Positions 3,870-64,000 of a stretch of DNA of 64,000 bases are shown in pieces. How positions within the stretch are numbered: position 1 is the first letter of the stretch; every line of letters begins with the position of its first letter. The stretch is from Planctomycetota bacterium. Lineage in GTDB: Bacteria; Planctomycetota; MHYJ01; JACQXL01. The notes beneath the pieces are model-generated. The model searched no databases and was not told the origin of the DNA. It saw only the letters and a program-made list of their open reading frames with translations. Location of the stretch: the NCBI GenBank assembly GCA_016235865.1, contig JACRIK010000021.1, forward strand, positions 97,226 to 161,225, read 5' to 3'. The translations under genes and the position numbers were made by a program.

Positions 3870-4472
3870 ATGTACAGCAAGATTAGTTTGGAAAAATATC
3901 TGGAGATGATAGCGGCGCCGACGGCCACGCCGGGCGGCGGGAGCGTTTCGGCATACGCCGGAGCCCTGGGCGCATCGCTGGGCAGTATGGCCAGCGGTAT
4001 CGCGCTCAAGAAGGTGCTGGCCCATTCGCATGATTTTGAGACGCTCAAGGAAGCGCAGAAGATATTCCGCCGGAATTATTACGCGCTTTTGAAACTGGCC
4101 GAGGCGGATAGCGCGGCATACGATAAGGTTAGTCAGGCATATAAACTCCCGCATCACGTCCTTAAGCGCCGGGGCGAGATTAACAAGGCCCTTAAAGCCG
4201 CCACAGAAGTGCCGTATAGGACAATGCTCCTGTCGCTGGAAAACCTCAACGAGATAAGCAAGGTCCGGAAACTTCTGCCGGTCCAGATATTGAGCGACAT
4301 CAACGTGGCGGCCCTGCTCAGCAAAGCGGCTTATAACGGGGCCCGGCTGAACGTTATTGTCAACGTCGAATCGCTCACTGACAAGAAGGTCTCGCGCAAG
4401 ATAGAAAAAGATATAGAGAAGGTGGAGCAGGCATTTGCCGAGACCATTCTCTGGCTTGATGATTGGATGTAG
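3870..4472 (+). CDS. cyclodeaminase/cyclohydrolase family protein (formiminotetrahydrofolate cyclodeaminase-like)
   Basis: 200 aa; 'AAPTATPGGGSVSAYAGALGASLGSMA' typical FTCD C-terminal-domain family. Confidence 0.75.
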   Translation: MYSKISLEKYLEMIAAPTATPGGGSVSAYAGALGASLGSMASGIALKKVLAHSHDFETLKEAQKIFRRNYYALLKLAEADSAAYDKVSQAYKLPHHVLKRRGEINKALKAATEVPYRTMLLSLENLNEISKVRKLLPVQILSDINVAALLSKAAYNGARLNVIVNVESLTDKKVSRKIEKDIEKVEQAFAETILWLDDWM

Positions 4473-4478
4473 GAGCAA

Positions 4479-4534
4479 AGAGCGTAGGGCGTATAGCGTA
4501 GAAACTATAAGCTCTATGCTATAAGCTCTATGCT
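4479..4534. repeat. repeat family A copy
   Basis: agagcgtagggcgtatagcgtag...ctataagctctatgctataagctctatgct. Confidence 0.7.
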
Positions 4535-22077: not shown

Positions 22078-22455
22078 GCGACCATAGAGTATCCCCTAAG
22101 CGGGGGCGGTCTATCCCCTAAGCGGGGATGGGCTATCCCCTAAGCGGGGAGGGGCTATCCCCTAAGCGGGGACGGGCTATCCTCTAAGCGGGGAGGGACT
22201 ACCCCCTAAGCGAGGGTGGACTATCCCCTAAGCTGGGAGGGGCTACCCCCTAAGCGGGGTGGGGCTACCCCCTAAGCGGGGATGGGCTATCCCCTAAGCG
22301 AGGTGGGGCTATCCCCTATGCGAGGTAGGGCTATCCCCTAAGCGAGGTGGGACTATTCCCTAAGCCGGGACGGGCTATCCCCTAAGCGGGGACGGACTAT
22401 CCCCTAAGCCGGGAGGGGCTACCCCCTAAGCGGGGATGGGCTATCCCCTATGCGA
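22078..22455. repeat. tandem array, ~17 copies of 22-bp unit CTATCCCCTAAGCGGGGATGGG
   Basis: head-to-tail copies with point variation, no spacers; stops in all frames. Confidence 0.9.
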
Positions 22456-22661
22456 GGATGGGGTATCACGGGTGCGGGGATGGGGGGAGGGGGGAGGGGG
22501 GATACCCCACCCCCCACCGTCTGAACCGGTTTTTGAGATAATAACTTTATGGATAAATGGTTACGCCAAAACCCGAGTGATTTTGGTAGCAGATTTCAGC
22601 CCGGATTACTTATTTAACGAGACATTAGACGACTTTTGGGGGTCGATATTGGCCTTTTGTT

Positions 22662-23636
22662 CTATGTCCCGCCAGAAGATAGGGCCAATGCGGCTGCGCC
22701 TAAGAGGCCGGCATCCTCGCCTAATTTGGCCGGGACAATCAGGGGCTTGCGATAGGGGTGTTTCATTATACTTGCCTTGACTACCTGACGCAGGGGTTTG
22801 AACAGAATCTCACCGGCCTGAGCCACTCCGCCGCCGATTACCACCATCTCCGGGTCAAAGATGTTAATCAGCGATGCGCAGGCCAGACCGAGATAATGGG
22901 CGGTGTCTTGAACAACTTCGCGGGCGAGTTTGTCGCCTTTTCTGGCTTTGTCAAATATTGTTTTAGCAGTAATGTCGTGCGTCTTGCGTCCTACGTCTTG
23001 CGTCCGGACGCCCAACGCATAACGCCCAACGCATAACGCATAGCGTTCTACAATGGCCGGTGCGCTGACCAGCGCTTCCAGATGCCCGGGTTTCCCGCAA
23101 CTGCAGTCCGGGCCATTGGGGTCTACGTTCATATGCCCGATTTCAGCGGCATAGAAATGCGAGCCGCGATATATCTGGTTGTCAATGATAATCCCGCCGC
23201 CTACGCCGGTGCCTAAGGTCAGGCAGATGAGATTCGTTGCTTTCTTCCCAGCGCCCCAGCATTTCTCACCCCAGCCGGCCAAATTGGCATCGTTGTCTAT
23301 GAAGACGGGTATTTTGAGCGCCTTCTCAAGCTCCTGTTTTACCTTCGTGCCTTTCCAGCCAATCAGATTGGGGGAGTCAGCCAGGATAATGCCTCTTTCA
23401 GCGTCAATAGAGCCGGGACAGGCGAGGCCGACACCGCGAACGGAATGACGAATGACGAATGACGAATGACGAATAACTTGATTGACTAATTGGGCAATGA
23501 GCCGGATGCCTTGTTTGCCATTGGGTGCTTTCGAGAAAGAGACCTTTTTCCTGGCCTTGATATGGCCGTTTTGGTCCACCAGCGCCGCGGTGATGTGGCT
23601 GCCGCCTAAATCGATACCAATAGCAAATTTGGTCAT
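22662..23636 (-). CDS. ROK family sugar kinase (glucokinase-like)
   Basis: 324 aa; 'KFAIGIDLGGSHITAALVD', CxCGxxGHLE zinc motif; contains in-frame repeat insertions. Confidence 0.8.
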   Translation of the reverse strand: MTKFAIGIDLGGSHITAALVDQNGHIKARKKVSFSKAPNGKQGIRLIAQLVNQVIRHSSFVIRHSVRGVGLACPGSIDAERGIILADSPNLIGWKGTKVKQELEKALKIPVFIDNDANLAGWGEKCWGAGKKATNLICLTLGTGVGGGIIIDNQIYRGSHFYAAEIGHMNVDPNGPDCSCGKPGHLEALVSAPAIVERYALCVGRYALGVRTQDVGRKTHDITAKTIFDKARKGDKLAREVVQDTAHYLGLACASLINIFDPEMVVIGGGVAQAGEILFKPLRQVVKASIMKHPYRKPLIVPAKLGEDAGLLGAAALALSSGGT

Positions 23637-23653
23637 AAGATGTATATAGTAAA

Positions 23654-23696
23654 ATCCCCCTTAATCCCCCTTTTGCAAAGGGGGAAGGGGGATTAG
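23654..23696 (-). terminator. nested poly-C/poly-G palindrome, candidate terminator for por operon
   Basis: atcccccttaatcccccttttgcaaagggggaagggggat, perfect nested inverted repeat directly downstream of porB. Confidence 0.4.
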
Positions 23697-43879: not shown

Positions 43880-44575
43880 ATGTCCGACTTCACTAAGAAA
43901 TCCTGGAAGTGCGTTGATATCAAGGATATTGATTGGGGCCAGAGGTTTGAGTTTAACGAGGATAAGGTGGATACCTATGTGTCGGACCTGCCCGGGGTCT
44001 ATCGCCTGGTTTATCGGACAATCCATGAGGGCAAGGATGGGTATTTTGTATTTTATAACGGCGAGACGGATGATTTATACAAGACACTGTGCGGGCATCT
44101 TAATCTCCTGAAGATTGAACTGCCACCGCCCAAGAATCCCTATAATGCCCCGGAGCATTGCATACAAAAGACCCTGCAGGAATACCCGTGCTATTTCAGG
44201 TTTATAATAGTCCGTTCAAAAAAGGAGCGGGTCCGGATTAAGAAGGAGCTTGATGATTCCATTATCCCCAAGGGCGAGATGGAATTCGCGGCCTGGGCCG
44301 ATAATTTCTTCCGGGTGTTGTCGGCCAACGCGGACAAGTGGTTTCCTCCGGCGGAGCGTCCTGCTGATTTTAGCGATGCTCTTGATAAATTTAATGACAA
44401 GCACAAGAAGTTTATGGCGTCCTATGATGAGCATCTCAAGGTGCAGATTAATCTTAGGGCCGCTGAGAAGAAACTGAAAGACGCCGAGCAGAAACTCAAG
44501 GATGAACAGCAGAAACGCAAGGAAGCTGAGAATGAAGGCGAGGAGTGGAAAGAGGGGAAGAATAAGCCGGACTGA
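43880..44575 (+). CDS. hypothetical protein with C-terminal coiled coil
   Basis: 231 aa ORF; weak GIY-YIG-like 'PGVYRL...GYFVFYNGETDDLYKTL'. Confidence 0.45.
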   Translation: MSDFTKKSWKCVDIKDIDWGQRFEFNEDKVDTYVSDLPGVYRLVYRTIHEGKDGYFVFYNGETDDLYKTLCGHLNLLKIELPPPKNPYNAPEHCIQKTLQEYPCYFRFIIVRSKKERVRIKKELDDSIIPKGEMEFAAWADNFFRVLSANADKWFPPAERPADFSDALDKFNDKHKKFMASYDEHLKVQINLRAAEKKLKDAEQKLKDEQQKRKEAENEGEEWKEGKNKPD

Positions 44576-44745
44576 TGATTAAAGCAACCCCCTGGACGGC
44601 TCAGGGGGACTGACCGATGACTGAAGCAACCCCCTGGATGACTCAGGGGGACTGACGGATGACTGAAGCAACCCCCTGGATGGCTCAGGGGGGCTGCGGA
44701 ATGACTGAATAAACCCCCTGGACGGTCCAGGGGAGCCATTTGCGG
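44574..44745. repeat. 4 tandem copies of ~42-bp unit each containing a CCCCCTGG..CCAGGGGG hairpin
   Basis: tgactgaagcaaccccctggatgactcagggggactgacgga x4 with point variation. Confidence 0.85.
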
Positions 44746-45595: not shown

Positions 45596-46168
45596 ATGAA
45601 TATCCAGACCCCGTTAACTGATGGGATAGTGGAGAATCTGCATATCGGCGACAAGGTGTTACTTTCCGGGGTAATCTACACAGCCCGGGACGCGGCCCAT
45701 AAGCGTATCTTTGACGAGATTCAATTAGCCCGCACCGAGAAACGCGCACCCAAACTGCCTTTTGACCTTAATGGCGCTGTAATCTATTATGTCGGTCCCA
45801 CCCCAGCCAAGCCGGGTCAGGTTATCGGCTCGGCCGGTCCGACCACGGCTTACCGGATGGACCCCTACACGCCCGCGTTGCTGGAACTGGGCCTGAAGGC
45901 CAGTATTGCCAAGGGCGAACGTTCTCCAGCTGTGTTAGAGGCGATGAAGAAATATAAGGCGGTTTATTTCGTGGCGGTCGGTGGCGCCGGGGCGCTCCTG
46001 AGCCAGCGGATTGTCAAGGCCGAGGTGATTGCCTATGACGACCTCGGGGCTGAGGCGGTTCGGAGACTGGAAGTGAAGGATTTTCCGGTCACCGTGGCCA
46101 ATGATATGCACGGCGGCGATTTATACAAGGTCGGGGTAAAGCAATACGCAAGGACAAGTCCCCCTTAA
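45596..46168 (+). CDS. Fe-S hydro-lyase beta subunit (class I fumarate hydratase/tartrate dehydratase beta-type)
   Basis: 190 aa; FumB-C/TtdB family resemblance; no adjacent alpha subunit. Confidence 0.7.
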   Translation: MNIQTPLTDGIVENLHIGDKVLLSGVIYTARDAAHKRIFDEIQLARTEKRAPKLPFDLNGAVIYYVGPTPAKPGQVIGSAGPTTAYRMDPYTPALLELGLKASIAKGERSPAVLEAMKKYKAVYFVAVGGAGALLSQRIVKAEVIAYDDLGAEAVRRLEVKDFPVTVANDMHGGDLYKVGVKQYARTSPP

Positions 46169-46228
46169 CAAAGGGGGATTAAGGGGGTTATAACCCCCTC
46201 GCCCCCTTTAATAAGGGGGAATGGGGAC
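46159..46228 (+). terminator. cluster of three poly-C/poly-G hairpins overlapping stop codon
   Basis: cccccttaacaaaggggg, gggggttataaccccc, ccccctttaataaggggg. Confidence 0.4.
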
Positions 46229-50311: not shown

Positions 50312-51376
50312 TTGCTAAAACAAATCTATCTTGATAAAATAGCAGATATGAGAAGATATAATATCGCCATTGTCGGTGCCACGGGTATTGTCGGGCTGGA
50401 GTTGCTTAAGATACTGGTGGAACGCAGATTCCCGGTAAGAGAATTGCGCCTGTTTGCTTCTGCCGGATCGGCTGGGAAAAGTATGAGGTATAAAGGTAAA
50501 GGGTTGAAAGTAAACAATATAACCAATAACTCATTTGAGGGCATAGATATCGCCTTCTTTGCTGTTGATGGTTCAATCAGTAAAAAATGGGCGCCGGTGG
50601 CGGTGAAAAGCGGGGCGGTGGTGATTGATAAGTCCAGCGCCTTCAGGATGGGCAAGAATGTGCCGCTGGTTATTCCGGAAATTAATGCCGATGCTATTAA
50701 CACAAACTCCCCTTTAGTAAGAGGGGGTAGGGGGTGTGTTATCGCCAGCCCTAATTGCTCGACCACGCCTCTGGCCATGGCCTTAAAGCCGCTCAATGAT
50801 TACGCTAAGGTGAAACGGGTGGTCGTGTCCACATATCAATCAGTCTCCGGCGCCGGTCTGCAGGCAGTGCAAGCGTTGACCGAACAAACAAAGCAAGTAT
50901 TAAATCTGAAATCTAAAATCTTAAATCTTAAATCTCAAAGATACGCCTTCAACGCCATCCCGCAGATTGATTCGTTCTGCGAGGACGATTATACCGGTGA
51001 AGAAGTCAAGATGATTAACGAGACCCGCAAGATACTCAATGATTATTCCATAAAGATAACCGCCACATGTGTGAGGATTCCGGTCTATTGCGGGCATAGC
51101 GAATCAGTCAATATCGAAACAGCCAGACCCATAACTGTTGCCCAGGCTAGGAATCTGTTAAGCAGGGCAAAGGGTATTAAGGTAATGGACAATCCTTTAA
51201 AGGGTAGTTATCCTATGCCGATTGATGTTGCAGGTAAGGACGAAGTATTCGTGGGCCGGATTCGCAAAGACCGGTCCGTCAGGAACGGAATCAACCTTTG
51301 GCTGGTTTCTGACAACCTTCGCAAAGGCGCGGCCTTGAATGCGGTGCAAATAGCGGAATATCTGATAAAAACATGA
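50312..51376 (+). CDS. asd: aspartate-semialdehyde dehydrogenase
   Basis: 354 aa; 'IAIVGATGIVG', active-site 'NCSTT'; contains two short in-frame repeat insertions. Confidence 0.85.
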   Translation: MLKQIYLDKIADMRRYNIAIVGATGIVGLELLKILVERRFPVRELRLFASAGSAGKSMRYKGKGLKVNNITNNSFEGIDIAFFAVDGSISKKWAPVAVKSGAVVIDKSSAFRMGKNVPLVIPEINADAINTNSPLVRGGRGCVIASPNCSTTPLAMALKPLNDYAKVKRVVVSTYQSVSGAGLQAVQALTEQTKQVLNLKSKILNLKSQRYAFNAIPQIDSFCEDDYTGEEVKMINETRKILNDYSIKITATCVRIPVYCGHSESVNIETARPITVAQARNLLSRAKGIKVMDNPLKGSYPMPIDVAGKDEVFVGRIRKDRSVRNGINLWLVSDNLRKGAALNAVQIAEYLIKT

Positions 51377-51415
51377 GTTATGAATTAATAATTGATAACT
51401 TATAATTCATAATTT

Positions 51416-53227
51416 ATGGTTCTCTATGATGTTGTTGTAGTCGGTGCCGGACATGCCGGAATAGAAGCCGCTCTGGTCTCTGCCCGAATGGGCTGTCAGA
51501 CCCTTCTCCTGACTATATCCTTTGACACCATTGCTCAGATGTCCTGCAATCCGGCTATCGGTGGATTAGCCAAAGGGCAATTGGTCCGTGAGATTGATGC
51601 CCTGGGCGGCGAGATGGCTAAGGCCACGGATGCCACCGGCATCCAATTCCGTATGCTCAATACCGGCAAGGGTCCGGCCGTTCAATCACTCCGCGCCCAG
51701 TGCGATAAGAAACAATATCACCTTTACATGAAGAAAGTTTTGAAGAATCAGGATAATCTCATCCTGCAAGAGGATATGGTTAACGAGATTATGGCCAAAG
51801 GCAATTGCGCAGTCGGCGTAAAGGGTAAAAAGGAGTCATACTACGGAAAAGCTGTGATTATTACCACCGGTACCTTTATGAAAGGGCTGATTCATATCGG
51901 TGAAGACAAGACCAAGGGCGGGAGAATCAATGAGCCGTCAGCCGAAAACATTTCGGATAGTCTGGTTAAGCTTGGCTTGGAATTAGGCCGCTTGAAGACC
52001 GGCACGCCGCCCCGGCTGGATACCAAAAGTATAGATTACCCCGGGCTGATAGAGCAGCCCGGCGATGAGATGCCGAAACCATTTTCATTCTCTACTGAAA
52101 AGATTATTCAGAAACAGATTCCTTGTTACATCACGCATACAAATAATAAGACGCACGAGATAATTCGCAAGAATCTTGATCGGGCGCCGCTTTATACCGG
52201 TCAGATTAAGGCCATCGGCCCGCGGTATTGTCCTTCCATTGAAGATAAGATAGTCAGATTCGCCGGCCGGGAACAGCATCAGGTTTTCCTGGAGCCGGAA
52301 GGCCGCAAGATTCCTGAGGTCTACTGCAACGGAATTTCCACCAGTTTGCCCAAGGATGTCCAGGAAGAAATGGTGCATTCTATCGAGGGGCTGGAGGATG
52401 CTGAATTTATCCGTTATGGTTATGCCATAGAATATGATGTGGTCCTGCCGCACCAGATAAAGCCGACATTGGAAACCAAGAAAGTGGAGAACCTTTTTGT
52501 AGCCGGTCAGATAAATGGCACATCCGGTTATGAGGAAGCCGGGGCCCAGGGGTTGATGGCCGGCATCAATGCGGTACTGAAGATAAGAAATGACCCGTCA
52601 TTTATTCTCGGGCGGGATGAAGCATATATCGGGGTTTTGATAGATGATTTAGTCACGCTCGGGCCGACCGAACCGTATCGGATGTTTACCTCGCGGGCCG
52701 AATATCGCCTGCTTCTGCGTTCTGATAACGCCGACCGGCGCCTGATGCCTTATGCGAATAAATTGGGATTGCTTGATAGGGCGCTGAAAAAGAGATTAGA
52801 TAATAAGGAACGCTTGATAAGAGATACGCTCAACGTATTAAGTCGGACGTTCAAGGGAACTAAGAATTTGAAGACGCTGCTCAAACAGCCGGAGATTACG
52901 CTGAAGGAATTAGAACATAAGTCAGCACCTTTGCGTAAGCTTAAACTGACCGACGATATCCGGGAACAGGTGGAGATTGAGGCTAAATATGAAGGGTATA
53001 TCCAGCGCCAATTGCGCCAGATTGAAAAGGCCAGAAAGATGGAGGATTATCCGTTGCCGCCTGGTTTTGATTACGGCAAGATAGGGCATCTCAGCAAGGA
53101 AGCCCGGACCCAACTCAATAAATTCAAGCCGGCTTCATTAGGCCAGGCATCGCGTATTGCCGGCGTCTCTCCGGCAGATATCACAGTTCTGATGGTATAT
53201 TTTCTATATGGCAGGAGAGCGCCATAA
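51416..53227 (+). CDS. mnmG: tRNA uridine-5-carboxymethylaminomethyl synthesis enzyme MnmG
   Basis: 603 aa; FAD-binding 'YDVVVVGAGHAGIEAA', GidA family. Confidence 0.9.
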   Translation: MVLYDVVVVGAGHAGIEAALVSARMGCQTLLLTISFDTIAQMSCNPAIGGLAKGQLVREIDALGGEMAKATDATGIQFRMLNTGKGPAVQSLRAQCDKKQYHLYMKKVLKNQDNLILQEDMVNEIMAKGNCAVGVKGKKESYYGKAVIITTGTFMKGLIHIGEDKTKGGRINEPSAENISDSLVKLGLELGRLKTGTPPRLDTKSIDYPGLIEQPGDEMPKPFSFSTEKIIQKQIPCYITHTNNKTHEIIRKNLDRAPLYTGQIKAIGPRYCPSIEDKIVRFAGREQHQVFLEPEGRKIPEVYCNGISTSLPKDVQEEMVHSIEGLEDAEFIRYGYAIEYDVVLPHQIKPTLETKKVENLFVAGQINGTSGYEEAGAQGLMAGINAVLKIRNDPSFILGRDEAYIGVLIDDLVTLGPTEPYRMFTSRAEYRLLLRSDNADRRLMPYANKLGLLDRALKKRLDNKERLIRDTLNVLSRTFKGTKNLKTLLKQPEITLKELEHKSAPLRKLKLTDDIREQVEIEAKYEGYIQRQLRQIEKARKMEDYPLPPGFDYGKIGHLSKEARTQLNKFKPASLGQASRIAGVSPADITVLMVYFLYGRRAP

Positions 53228-58768: not shown

Positions 58769-58850
58769 GCGCGGGTGGTGGAACTGGCAGACACGTAGGT
58801 TTTAGGAGCCTATGCCTCACGGCTTGCGGGTTCAACTCCCGCCCCGCGCA
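58769..58850 (+). tRNA. tRNA-Leu (anticodon TAG)
   Basis: acceptor gcgcggg/cccgcgc, anticodon stem taggt/gccta with loop ttTAGga, long variable arm, T-loop ttcaact; no encoded CCA. Confidence 0.7.
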
Positions 58851-63123: not shown

Positions 63124-64000
63124 TTATAGTTCTCTTAGCGATTCCTTCAGATTTGCTTCCTGTTTGGCCAGTTCTTCCTGCCTGAGCAATTCTTTTTGGA
63201 GAATGGCCTGGGGCGCCCGTGATTTGAAATTCTCGTCGGATAATTTATTGGTCACTAAAGCCAGTTGTTCCTTGATTTTGATCAGGCGCTGTTCCAGCCG
63301 TTTTTTCTCCGCCTCCGGGTCAATAATTCCCTCCAACGGTATGAAAAGCTGCAAAGCATTGACGATTTCGGTGGCCGAGTGTTTGGGTTTGGCCAGTTTT
63401 ACGCCCATCTCTATCTTACCCAGATTAGCCTGATGCTTAATCAGTTCTTCATGCGGCCGAATGCCGTCCAGCGCTTTGCTCACTTCAGCCGAGATAATCA
63501 GGTCTAACGCCTGCTTGCGCTCGATTGTCATCTTATTGCGGATATTCCGGACACTCCGGATGATGCCGATATTTATTTCCATTGTCTGCTCAATCTGCTC
63601 GTCTATCTGCTTGGGCTCGGCCGACGGCCAGGTTGCACTCATCACTGATTCGCTCTGGAAATGTTCCGGATATTGCTCCTTAAACTTCTGCCAGAGTTCC
63701 TCGGTGATAAACGGGATGAAGGGATGGAGCATGCGCAGGGTATTGCTGAAGAGATAAAAAAGCGTAGAGCGTGTAGCGTTGAGCGTAGAGGCGTCTTGGC
63801 TGTATAATCTTGGCTTGATGATTTCCAGATACCAGTCGCACAAATCGCTCCAGAAGAAGTGGTAAATCAAGTGGGCCGCCTCGCTGAATTGGTAGGTCTC
63901 TAAGGCCTTGGTATAATCGCGGATGGTGGTGTTCAGGCGGGAGAGAATCCAGCGGTCTTCGAATGTGTCGTGCGTTGTGGGTTGTGTGTCTTGGGTTTTT
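63124..64000 (-). CDS. valS: valine--tRNA ligase, C-terminal part (gene continues beyond window end)
   Basis: 'DRWILSRLN...SEAAHLIYHFFWSDLCDWYLEIIKP' and C-terminal coiled coil; frame stays open to 64000. Confidence 0.8.
   Translation of the reverse strand, partial: KTQDTQPTTHDTFEDRWILSRLNTTIRDYTKALETYQFSEAAHLIYHFFWSDLCDWYLEIIKPRLYSQDASTLNATRSTLFYLFSNTLRMLHPFIPFITEELWQKFKEQYPEHFQSESVMSATWPSAEPKQIDEQIEQTMEINIGIIRSVRNIRNKMTIERKQALDLIISAEVSKALDGIRPHEELIKHQANLGKIEMGVKLAKPKHSATEIVNALQLFIPLEGIIDPEAEKKRLEQRLIKIKEQLALVTNKLSDENFKSRAPQAILQKELLRQEELAKQEANLKESLREL

Follow-up and report, generated by a model that had tools for sequence, protein, structure and literature searches.

Dispersed short repeats retained in frame within genes are, as such, already known from other taxa. 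The Rickettsia palindromic elements (RPE) measure 105-146 nt and fall into families with a defined consensus (Ogata et al. 2000, cited after the review PMC3184786), and the short tandemly repeated repetitive (STRR) sequences of cyanobacteria, Xanthomonas and Beggiatoaceae are built of heptamers, e.g., GGGGA(T/C)T and GGGAATC (PMC4692102) or TAACTGA (PMC4679880). According to the latter two sources, the copies located within open reading frames (ORFs) of STRR-bearing genomes reside mostly at the ends of proteins or in hypothetical proteins, and one or few units dominate. No report on heptamer or in-frame repeats in Planctomycetes was found in the literature. Here, we describe such repeats in a stretch of 64,000 nucleotides from a Planctomycetota bacterium (contig JACRIK010000021.1, positions 97,226 to 161,225; the whole stretch is referred to below as the window), with the emphasis on its asd gene, which encodes aspartate-semialdehyde dehydrogenase (Asd) and harbors a hairpin of C- and G-runs (site 1) and a tandem heptamer array (site 2). 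Both segments are probably translated and tolerated copies of the lineage's own repertoire of short repeats, accommodated in permissive loops of the enzyme. What stands out here is that the interior of essential enzymes is affected and that the 7-nt register is kept while the repeat unit turns over.

The asd gene (50348-51376, + strand) codes for a protein of 342 aa; the longest ORF spans 50312-51376, and the ATG at 50348 (MRRYNIAIVGATG...) is its most plausible start. The identity of the gene, proposed in an earlier note on this DNA together with the in-frame reading of both repeats, is borne out by the intact ORF and by its match to the NCBIfam equivalog PRK14874 (E = 4e-138, 460 bits vs. 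a cut-off of 223), as well as by a score above the cut-off of TIGR01296 (434 bits vs. 324; asd_B type). Both Pfam domains, the NAD-binding PF01118 (residues 5-118) and the dimerisation domain PF02774 (residues 146-326), are present, and the closest solved structure is that of V. cholerae Asd2 (PDB 2QZ9, E = 5e-95). The catalytic C137, located in the SPNCST motif, along with Q164, R243 and H250, is invariant in the alignments of 25 and 64 homologues. Judging by these sequence features, the gene is intact and its functional residues are kept. A protein identical to the window Asd is on record as MBI5779111.1, from a Planctomycetota metagenome-assembled genome (MAG).

The codon-level comparison included the window asd and 12 related asd genes from independent assemblies (L001-L005 and L081-L087), i.e., 13 clade genes. 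The Asd proteins of the 12 relatives are 68-86% identical to that of the window over the full length (BLASTP), and the gene order Fer4_5 gene - asd - mnmG is retained in the relatives. The AlphaFold2 model of Asd, based on 64 sequences, displayed a mean predicted local distance difference test (pLDDT) score of 89 and a TM-score of 0.87 vs. 2QZ9. Its two lowest-confidence blocks, residues 121-130 (pLDDT 64) and 191-200 (pLDDT 54), correspond to site 1 and site 2, and both sites coincide with the positions of indels in solved structures and other Asd branches. The comparison with orthologues and structures, proposed in the earlier note to see whether the repeats map to loops, places both of them in low-confidence loops at indel positions.

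Site 1 is a quasi-palindrome of 42 nt, AACACAAACTCCCCTTTAGTAAGAGGGGGTAGGGGGTGTGTT (50699-50740, + strand), comprising codons 118-131 (NTNSPLVRGGRGCV). The 30-mer ctcccctttagtaagagggggtagggggtg within it (50707-50736) is read as S121-V131 (SPLVRGGRGCV); it occurs in the window once, with none expected in shuffles, and neither the exact search nor that tolerating three mismatches revealed a second copy elsewhere in the 64 kb. The arms of the palindrome consist of an outer AACAC/GTGTT and an inner CCCC/GGGG pair, the 3' arm being composed of two G5 heptamers (50722-50735; period 7, 2 copies as detected by the program TRF). The predicted RNA fold of the hairpin has an energy of -18.6 kcal/mol (z = -2.35; 4 of 200 shuffles equal it). 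A G-quadruplex of the G5 arm was considered and rejected, since the arm contains only two G-runs. Just one of the three frames through the hairpin is free of stops, and it is the frame in use. The segment, which is preceded by helix 110-116 and followed by strand 131-133 in the AlphaFold2 model, belongs to the linker that joins both Pfam domains and lies six residues upstream of C137.

Six of the relatives (L081, L083, L084, L001, L087 and L005) are devoid of the hairpin and carry instead 18 nt of the KPYHRI/KRHKGI type, the peptide of which resembles the K-x-H-K/R-G-I encountered outside the clade. In the window, 42 nt stand in place of the relatives' 18-nt AAGCCNTAYCAYMGNATY (KPYHRI), which amounts to a net gain of 8 aa. 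The MAFFT alignment displays the difference as a clean 24-nt gap at 50711-50734 in L081, L083, L084, L001 and L087, the bases adjoining the gap being changed as well, and the same position is shorter in the solved structures (6 gap columns in 2QZ9, 8 in 2GYY and fewer in 8JUO). The hairpin is, therefore, an insertion, as the earlier note had it. Compared with a MITE (a miniature transposable element bounded by inverted repeats), the termini AACACA/TGTGTT are inverted, no direct repeat flanks them, and the ancestral 18 nt are replaced, not split, so the site does not conform to a MITE. The same codon position accommodates an unrelated insert, a direct AATCTGC array, in L082 and an inverted pair of ~90 nt, (AAGATGA)n-loop-(TCATCTT)n, in L085, L002, L086, L003 and L004; the latter insert and the hairpin that L001, L083, L084 and L085 carry between asd and mnmG are of one kind. 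As judged from these alignments, site 1 is a recent lineage-specific replacement or insertion in the interdomain linker.

Site 2 is a tandem array, TTAAATC TGAAATC TAAAATC TTAAATC TTAAATC TCAAAGA (50900-50939, + strand), in which TRF recognized the unit TTAAATC in 5.7 copies (87% matches, score 59); it codes for LNLKSKILNLKSQR, residues 185-198. The earlier note had placed here, at 50890-50935, a repeat with a 12-nt unit: the repeat is real, and the 12-mer has four overlapping matches vs. 0.46 expected, but the unit is of 7 nt and the array starts 10 nt later. The view of this repeat as a net insertion had to be abandoned, since the loop, which follows helix 169-185 of the AlphaFold2 model, aligns without gaps to V. 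cholerae Asd2 and hence equals it in length (in S. pneumoniae Asd it is 11 residues longer), and since repeats of the same period are found at this place throughout most of the clade. The array of the same unit is present in L081 and L082, and a slightly diverged copy of it in L083; the copy number amounts to 5.4-5.7 in the window and these three relatives, always in frame. In the autocorrelation test of 13 clade and 34 non-clade asd genes, period 7 was the best for the site-2 loop in 11 of the 13 clade genes, with a match fraction of at least 0.8 in 8 of the 13 and in 0 of the 34 non-clade genes (maximum 0.52).

Across most of the clade, the site-2 loop is encoded by a 7-nt unit repeated about five times, and the unit varies by lineage: AAATCTN in the window and L081-L083, CAATTCC in L084, TCGCAAT in L005, CTACGCT in L001, CAACTTC in L086, CAACGAG in L003, and CACTCCG with a nested GC hairpin in L002. 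The loop of L005 contains two AAATCT units beside its TCGCAAT units. The peptides encoded at this site across the clade have nothing in common except length. A perfect (AAATCTT)n would hold TAA in all frames; the variable seventh base of AAATCTN avoids TAA and TGA in the phase read in the window and L081-L083, which fits translation under a stop-codon filter. On the strength of these comparisons, site 2 is a loop of ordinary length that is encoded by repeats across the clade. Neither segment was found in Asd of distant taxa, the occurrence of which would have spoken against the earlier note: both are confined to the clade among the hits listed and the 34 non-clade loci. The conservation in close relatives, also raised there, is of two kinds, the hairpin being present in the window only, and the site-2 array being shared with L081-L083 and represented by different units in most of the remaining clade.

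One more segment of Asd, residues ~45-56 (KFKGSRFKVQ in the relatives; approximately 50485-50512 in the window), forms a strand-turn-strand encoded in several relatives by TCAAGGT/GTTCAAG heptamers. The array is located at 8633-8665 in L005 and at orthologous sites in L081, L086 and L004, and its periodicity is largely decayed in the window. GC-hairpin inserts adjoin this segment in L082, L083 and L087.

The repeats of asd belong to a broader repertoire. The core CCCCTT-N(1-10)-AGGGG is encountered at four loci of the window, i.e., 23667, 46161 and 46203 (all intergenic) and 50709 (asd), yielding 7 strand-hits vs. 0.77 expected, a number attained in 0 of 100 shuffles. The family of C-run/G-run hairpins is therefore real, and the assignment of the 50707-50736 hairpin to it in the earlier note holds; a narrower pattern of the hairpin matched, in the window, the asd copy only. 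The intergenic members include the C5/G5 hairpin (AATCCCCCTT)x2 - loop - (AAGGGGG)x2 at 23653-23692 (fold -29.6 kcal/mol, z -4.35) and a cluster of three nested C5/G5 hairpins at 46160-46225 (fold -45.4 kcal/mol, z -4.62), which contains CCCCCTTTAATAAGGGGG, the closest match to the core of the asd hairpin. These intergenic hairpins are far more stable than the asd copy (z of about -4.4 and -4.6 vs. -2.35). The cluster at 46160-46225 overlaps with the end of a gene for a fumarase C-terminal domain, supplying its stop codon, and is absent from the orthologous spacer of L087. The metagenome scan with the 19-nt hairpin core returned four matches, 0 of them in asd, a number near chance for the size of the database. 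In two metagenome contigs (L090 1619-1637 and L091 1771-1789), the core resides inside a double C6/G6 element coding for the C-terminal tail (NPPSPPLTKGGLGGL) of a 585-aa PilM-like ORF.

The density of period-7 arrays was determined with TRF in the window, 12 clade loci, 51 control loci (859 kb) and two other Planctomycetota loci. Per 10 kb, it comprised 2.19 in the window, 4.05 in the clade loci and 0.38 in the controls, i.e., the window and its relatives exceed the control level ~6-10 times; in the two other Planctomycetota loci, TRF detected zero such arrays. Of the 14 periodic regions of the window, 11 have a period of 7 or 14. The arrays of the window reside mostly between genes, and in many cases an inverted array comes next, so that a stem-loop results. 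Certain units recur at non-orthologous loci: AGAGCGT is present at three loci of the window vs. 0.2 hits expected, and also in L003 and at asd site 2 of L001, and AAAGATG is shared by site 1 of the L085 group, the asd-mnmG spacers and position 1786 of the window. The AAATCTN unit occurs within the window in asd only; beyond the window asd, the sole places among 91 loci where it is found in pairs are the asd genes of L081-L083 and the mnmG gene of L003.

Other housekeeping genes are affected as well. Two segments of the ROK glucokinase gene (22662-23636, - strand) consist of in-frame repeats, a GAATGAC x4.6 array at 23443-23474 (- strand), read as VIRHSSFVIRHS, and an inverted pair of heptamer arrays at 22974-23042 (- strand), ERYALCVGRYALGVRTQDVGRK; across both, the length differs from that of PDB 2QM1 by at most one residue. 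The 3' part of valS (63124-64000, - strand; Anticodon_1 and Val_tRNA-synt_C) includes two in-frame arrays, AGCGTAG x4.3 at 63761-63790, read as ASTLNATRSTL, and a GTGGGTT array at 63970-63997; AGCGTAG is also the unit of the intergenic arrays at 163-185 and 4479-4502. MnmG contains in-frame repeat segments in five relatives, e.g., a C6/G6 hairpin in L002 (read as NPPSPPLSKGGKGGF), the same element as the C5/G5 family, and an AAATCNC array in L003 (read as NLKSQI). At residues ~130-155 of L087 mnmG, there is a 25-aa in-frame insert, EIASPLVRNDNSLGCHCEERKRRSNP, encoded by a long palindrome, GATTGCTTC...TCGCAATGACA / TGTCATTGCGA...GAAGCAATC. An array-driven frameshift was considered for the split mnmG of L085 and rejected: the gene is broken into two ORFs by a 77-nt tandem duplication at 4340-4500, probably an assembly artefact.

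The spacer between asd and mnmG is occupied in the window by an AT-rich 7/14-nt repeat (51383-51417) with the inverted repeat TTATGAATTA..TAATTCATAA, and the orthologous spacers contain hairpins of inverted arrays (L001 5690-5749, L083 1447-1507, L084 3296-3353, L085 3838-3907 and L003 11123-11184). The units of these hairpins differ on both arms between relatives, AAAGATG/CATCTCT vs. AAGTTAA/ACTTTTT, and in L001 and L085 the spacer array also codes for the last residues of Asd. Elsewhere in the window, at 22090-22518, between a TPR-repeat gene and the glucokinase gene, a 22-nt hairpin unit (TATCCCCTAAGCGGGGAGGGGC) is repeated in tandem 17 times, after which come G6 heptamers and their C-rich inverted partner; a 42-nt x3.9 tandem array with a C5...G5 hairpin in each unit is located at 44570-44733, between two ORFs with no Pfam match. 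The tRNA gene at 58769-58850 is the sole Rfam match in the window at the gathering threshold.

The proposed origin of the Asd segments from the lineage's own repeats may be pictured as follows. The repertoire would consist of 7-nt tandem arrays and of hairpins made of inverted 7-nt units, including the C5/G5 ones, residing mainly between genes, and its copies would have settled in two surface segments of Asd that are under no constraint. Site 2 would behave as a heptamer microsatellite, the unit of which turns over, with the length staying near that of the canonical loop. Replication slippage in the 7-nt register may expand a unit, and intramolecular template switching may create or correct hairpins. 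A further route may be copying or recombination, from array to array and from one related lineage to another; copying between loci is what the units shared by unrelated loci hint at. Selection would merely act as a filter for the correct frame, the lack of stops and about the right length of the loop, and Asd would gain no new function from the segments.

Several observations do not sit comfortably with this scenario. The site-1 hairpin is known from one assembly only, and its comparison with the relatives in MAFFT displayed neither a target-site duplication nor a terminal signature of the transposition type; no donor AAATCTN array was found elsewhere in the 64-kb window. Translation, neutrality and origin of the segments are all inferred. 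Next, the window and L081/L082 diverge by 3-5% around site 2 and by 17% gene-wide, and the 90-nt site-1 element of L085 diverges from that of L003 by 4-9%, at 23% gene-wide, its flanks being not conserved. Such a low divergence of the elements could reflect nucleotide-level constraint, hence function, instead of recent recombination. Finally, the strict 7-nt register at a codon-constrained site is not easily kept through the turnover of the unit by simple slippage, since each 7-nt step shifts the frame.

At the same time, asd is a mosaic: the window possesses the allele of L084 at residues 41-60 and that of L081-L083 at residues 164-204. The neighbour-joining tree of asd is star-like and disagrees with the way the inserts are distributed, which may reflect either recombination or repeated gain. 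The low divergence together with the mosaic fits recent recombination or re-insertion from conserved copies of the family, and drive-like spread or constraint could account for it as well. A more radical version would be an active process operating in the 7-nt register, either an enzyme writing or copying heptamers or biased gene conversion driving array cassettes, which overwrites permissive segments of essential genes. If true, it would explain the periodicity kept despite the swapped units found elsewhere in the genome, the concerted change of both arms of inverted arrays, and the elements being several-fold less diverged than their host genes; nevertheless, we regard it as unlikely.

A somewhat better, if still minor, chance can be given to a purely local origin, by slippage and quasi-palindrome template switching at each site, with the loci alike on account of a shared mutational bias and the stop filter and with no copying between them. 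For many bacteria, a surplus of heptamer repeats has been described and explained by slippage of the polymerase (Mrazek et al. 2007, cited after PMC4679880 and PMC4692102). At site 1, a cluster of substitutions and an insertion jointly form the palindrome with no target duplication, which is exactly the outcome that a template switch yields, and the AAATCT units beside the TCGCAAT units in L005 suggest one unit expanding at the expense of another. Yet identical 7-nt units are found at unrelated loci far above chance, the 90-nt element of site 1 has matching counterparts in the spacer that follows asd in the relatives, and divergence is lower within the elements than in their flanks; moreover, single 7-nt steps would shift the frame of an essential ORF. 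Considerably less probable is a functional role of the segments, e.g., an mRNA or DNA structure regulating asd (by pausing at the domain boundary, RNA stability or antisense termination), an adaptive loop, or a frameshift on/off switch. The location of site 1 exactly at the domain boundary, the unusually low nucleotide divergence in and around the elements, and a 7-nt unit inside an ORF, the classic phase-variable layout, would be in keeping with such a role. However, most close relatives do without the insert at site 1, and the three types of insert recorded there share neither sequence nor structure; the site-2 array lacks an RNA fold (z +0.16) and is conserved neither in unit nor in peptide. 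As to the switch, all four lineages with this unit have it in the same copy number (5.4-5.7), and asd serves biosynthesis, being neither a surface nor a restriction gene. The scan for terminators and promoters gave nothing above chance and no + strand terminator call at site 1; the weak terminator-like hairpin on the - strand (50724-50709), which might be taken in favor of function, is within chance (1 found vs. 1.6 expected), and Rfam has no RNA family matching site 1 or site 2.

The remaining explanations question the segments themselves. Assembly or sequencing error is suggested by the origin of the site-1 hairpin from a single MAG contig, by the proneness of G/C homopolymer hairpins to errors, and by the assembly-type 77-nt duplication in mnmG of L085. 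For site 2, an artefact is excluded, since L081, L082 and L083, assembled independently in different projects, yielded near-identical arrays of the same unit and copy number. At site 1, it is unlikely: the hairpin keeps the frame, the ORF is intact, and analogous inserts are present in 12 independent assemblies. As a whole, this explanation deserves very little credence. Even less can be granted to the absence of the segments from the mature protein, i.e., their removal from the mRNA or bypassing by the ribosome, after the manner of the byp elements in yeast mitochondria. The byp elements are small GC-rich hairpin inserts in coding genes, and the GC-rich hairpin insert of asd resembles them. 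Against this, all inserts in asd and mnmG of the 13 genomes have a length that is a multiple of 3 and are free of stops, although their ascertainment through intact ORFs weakens the point, the unit variants specifically avoid stops, and the sole open frame of the hairpin is the one used.

If the segments are indeed translated and tolerated copies of the lineage's repeats, the clade offers a natural system for studying how selfish or mutational repeats become protein sequence, how tolerant enzyme loops are to arbitrary peptides, and what causes the preference of bacteria for 7-nt repeats. Short repeats with a unit length indivisible by three would be expected not to persist in essential genes; in this clade, Asd, ValS, glucokinase and MnmG have heptamer repeats in their catalytic cores. 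Such segments inflate the apparent divergence of proteins and may mislead the alignment, phylogeny and annotation of MAGs.

Compared with the known systems, the Asd segments share with phase-variable contingency loci a tandem repeat inside an ORF with a unit that is not a multiple of 3, but they reside in an essential biosynthetic enzyme, keep the same copy number in four lineages, and form an imperfect array with stop-avoiding variants. Like the inverted repeats known from functional protein genes, they have both arms translated, as far as the reading frame indicates; those inverted repeats are perfect, reach up to 284 bp and belong to conserved regions of proteins, whereas here they are short, imperfect and confined to unconserved loops. 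The likeness to RPE is closer: dispersed palindromic repeats occur between genes and in frame inside housekeeping genes, are absent from orthologues, and seem to be translated and tolerated in permissive regions, with both arms read as protein. In contrast to RPE, the elements are of 30-90 nt (42 nt for the asd palindrome and ~90 nt for the largest insert), are composed of 7-nt units of many types, belong to Planctomycetota, and include direct tandem arrays, which are not a feature of RPE. As in the heptamer STRR, 7-nt units are assembled into short tandem arrays at a number of loci of the window, mostly intergenic and sometimes as inverted pairs able to form a stem-loop, G-rich heptamers occur among them, and close relatives vary. 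Unlike STRR, there are many units, the asd copy lies inside an ORF rather than between genes, arrays are found in the interior of the essential Asd, ValS, glucokinase and MnmG, and an orthologous coding loop keeps its 7-nt register while the unit changes.

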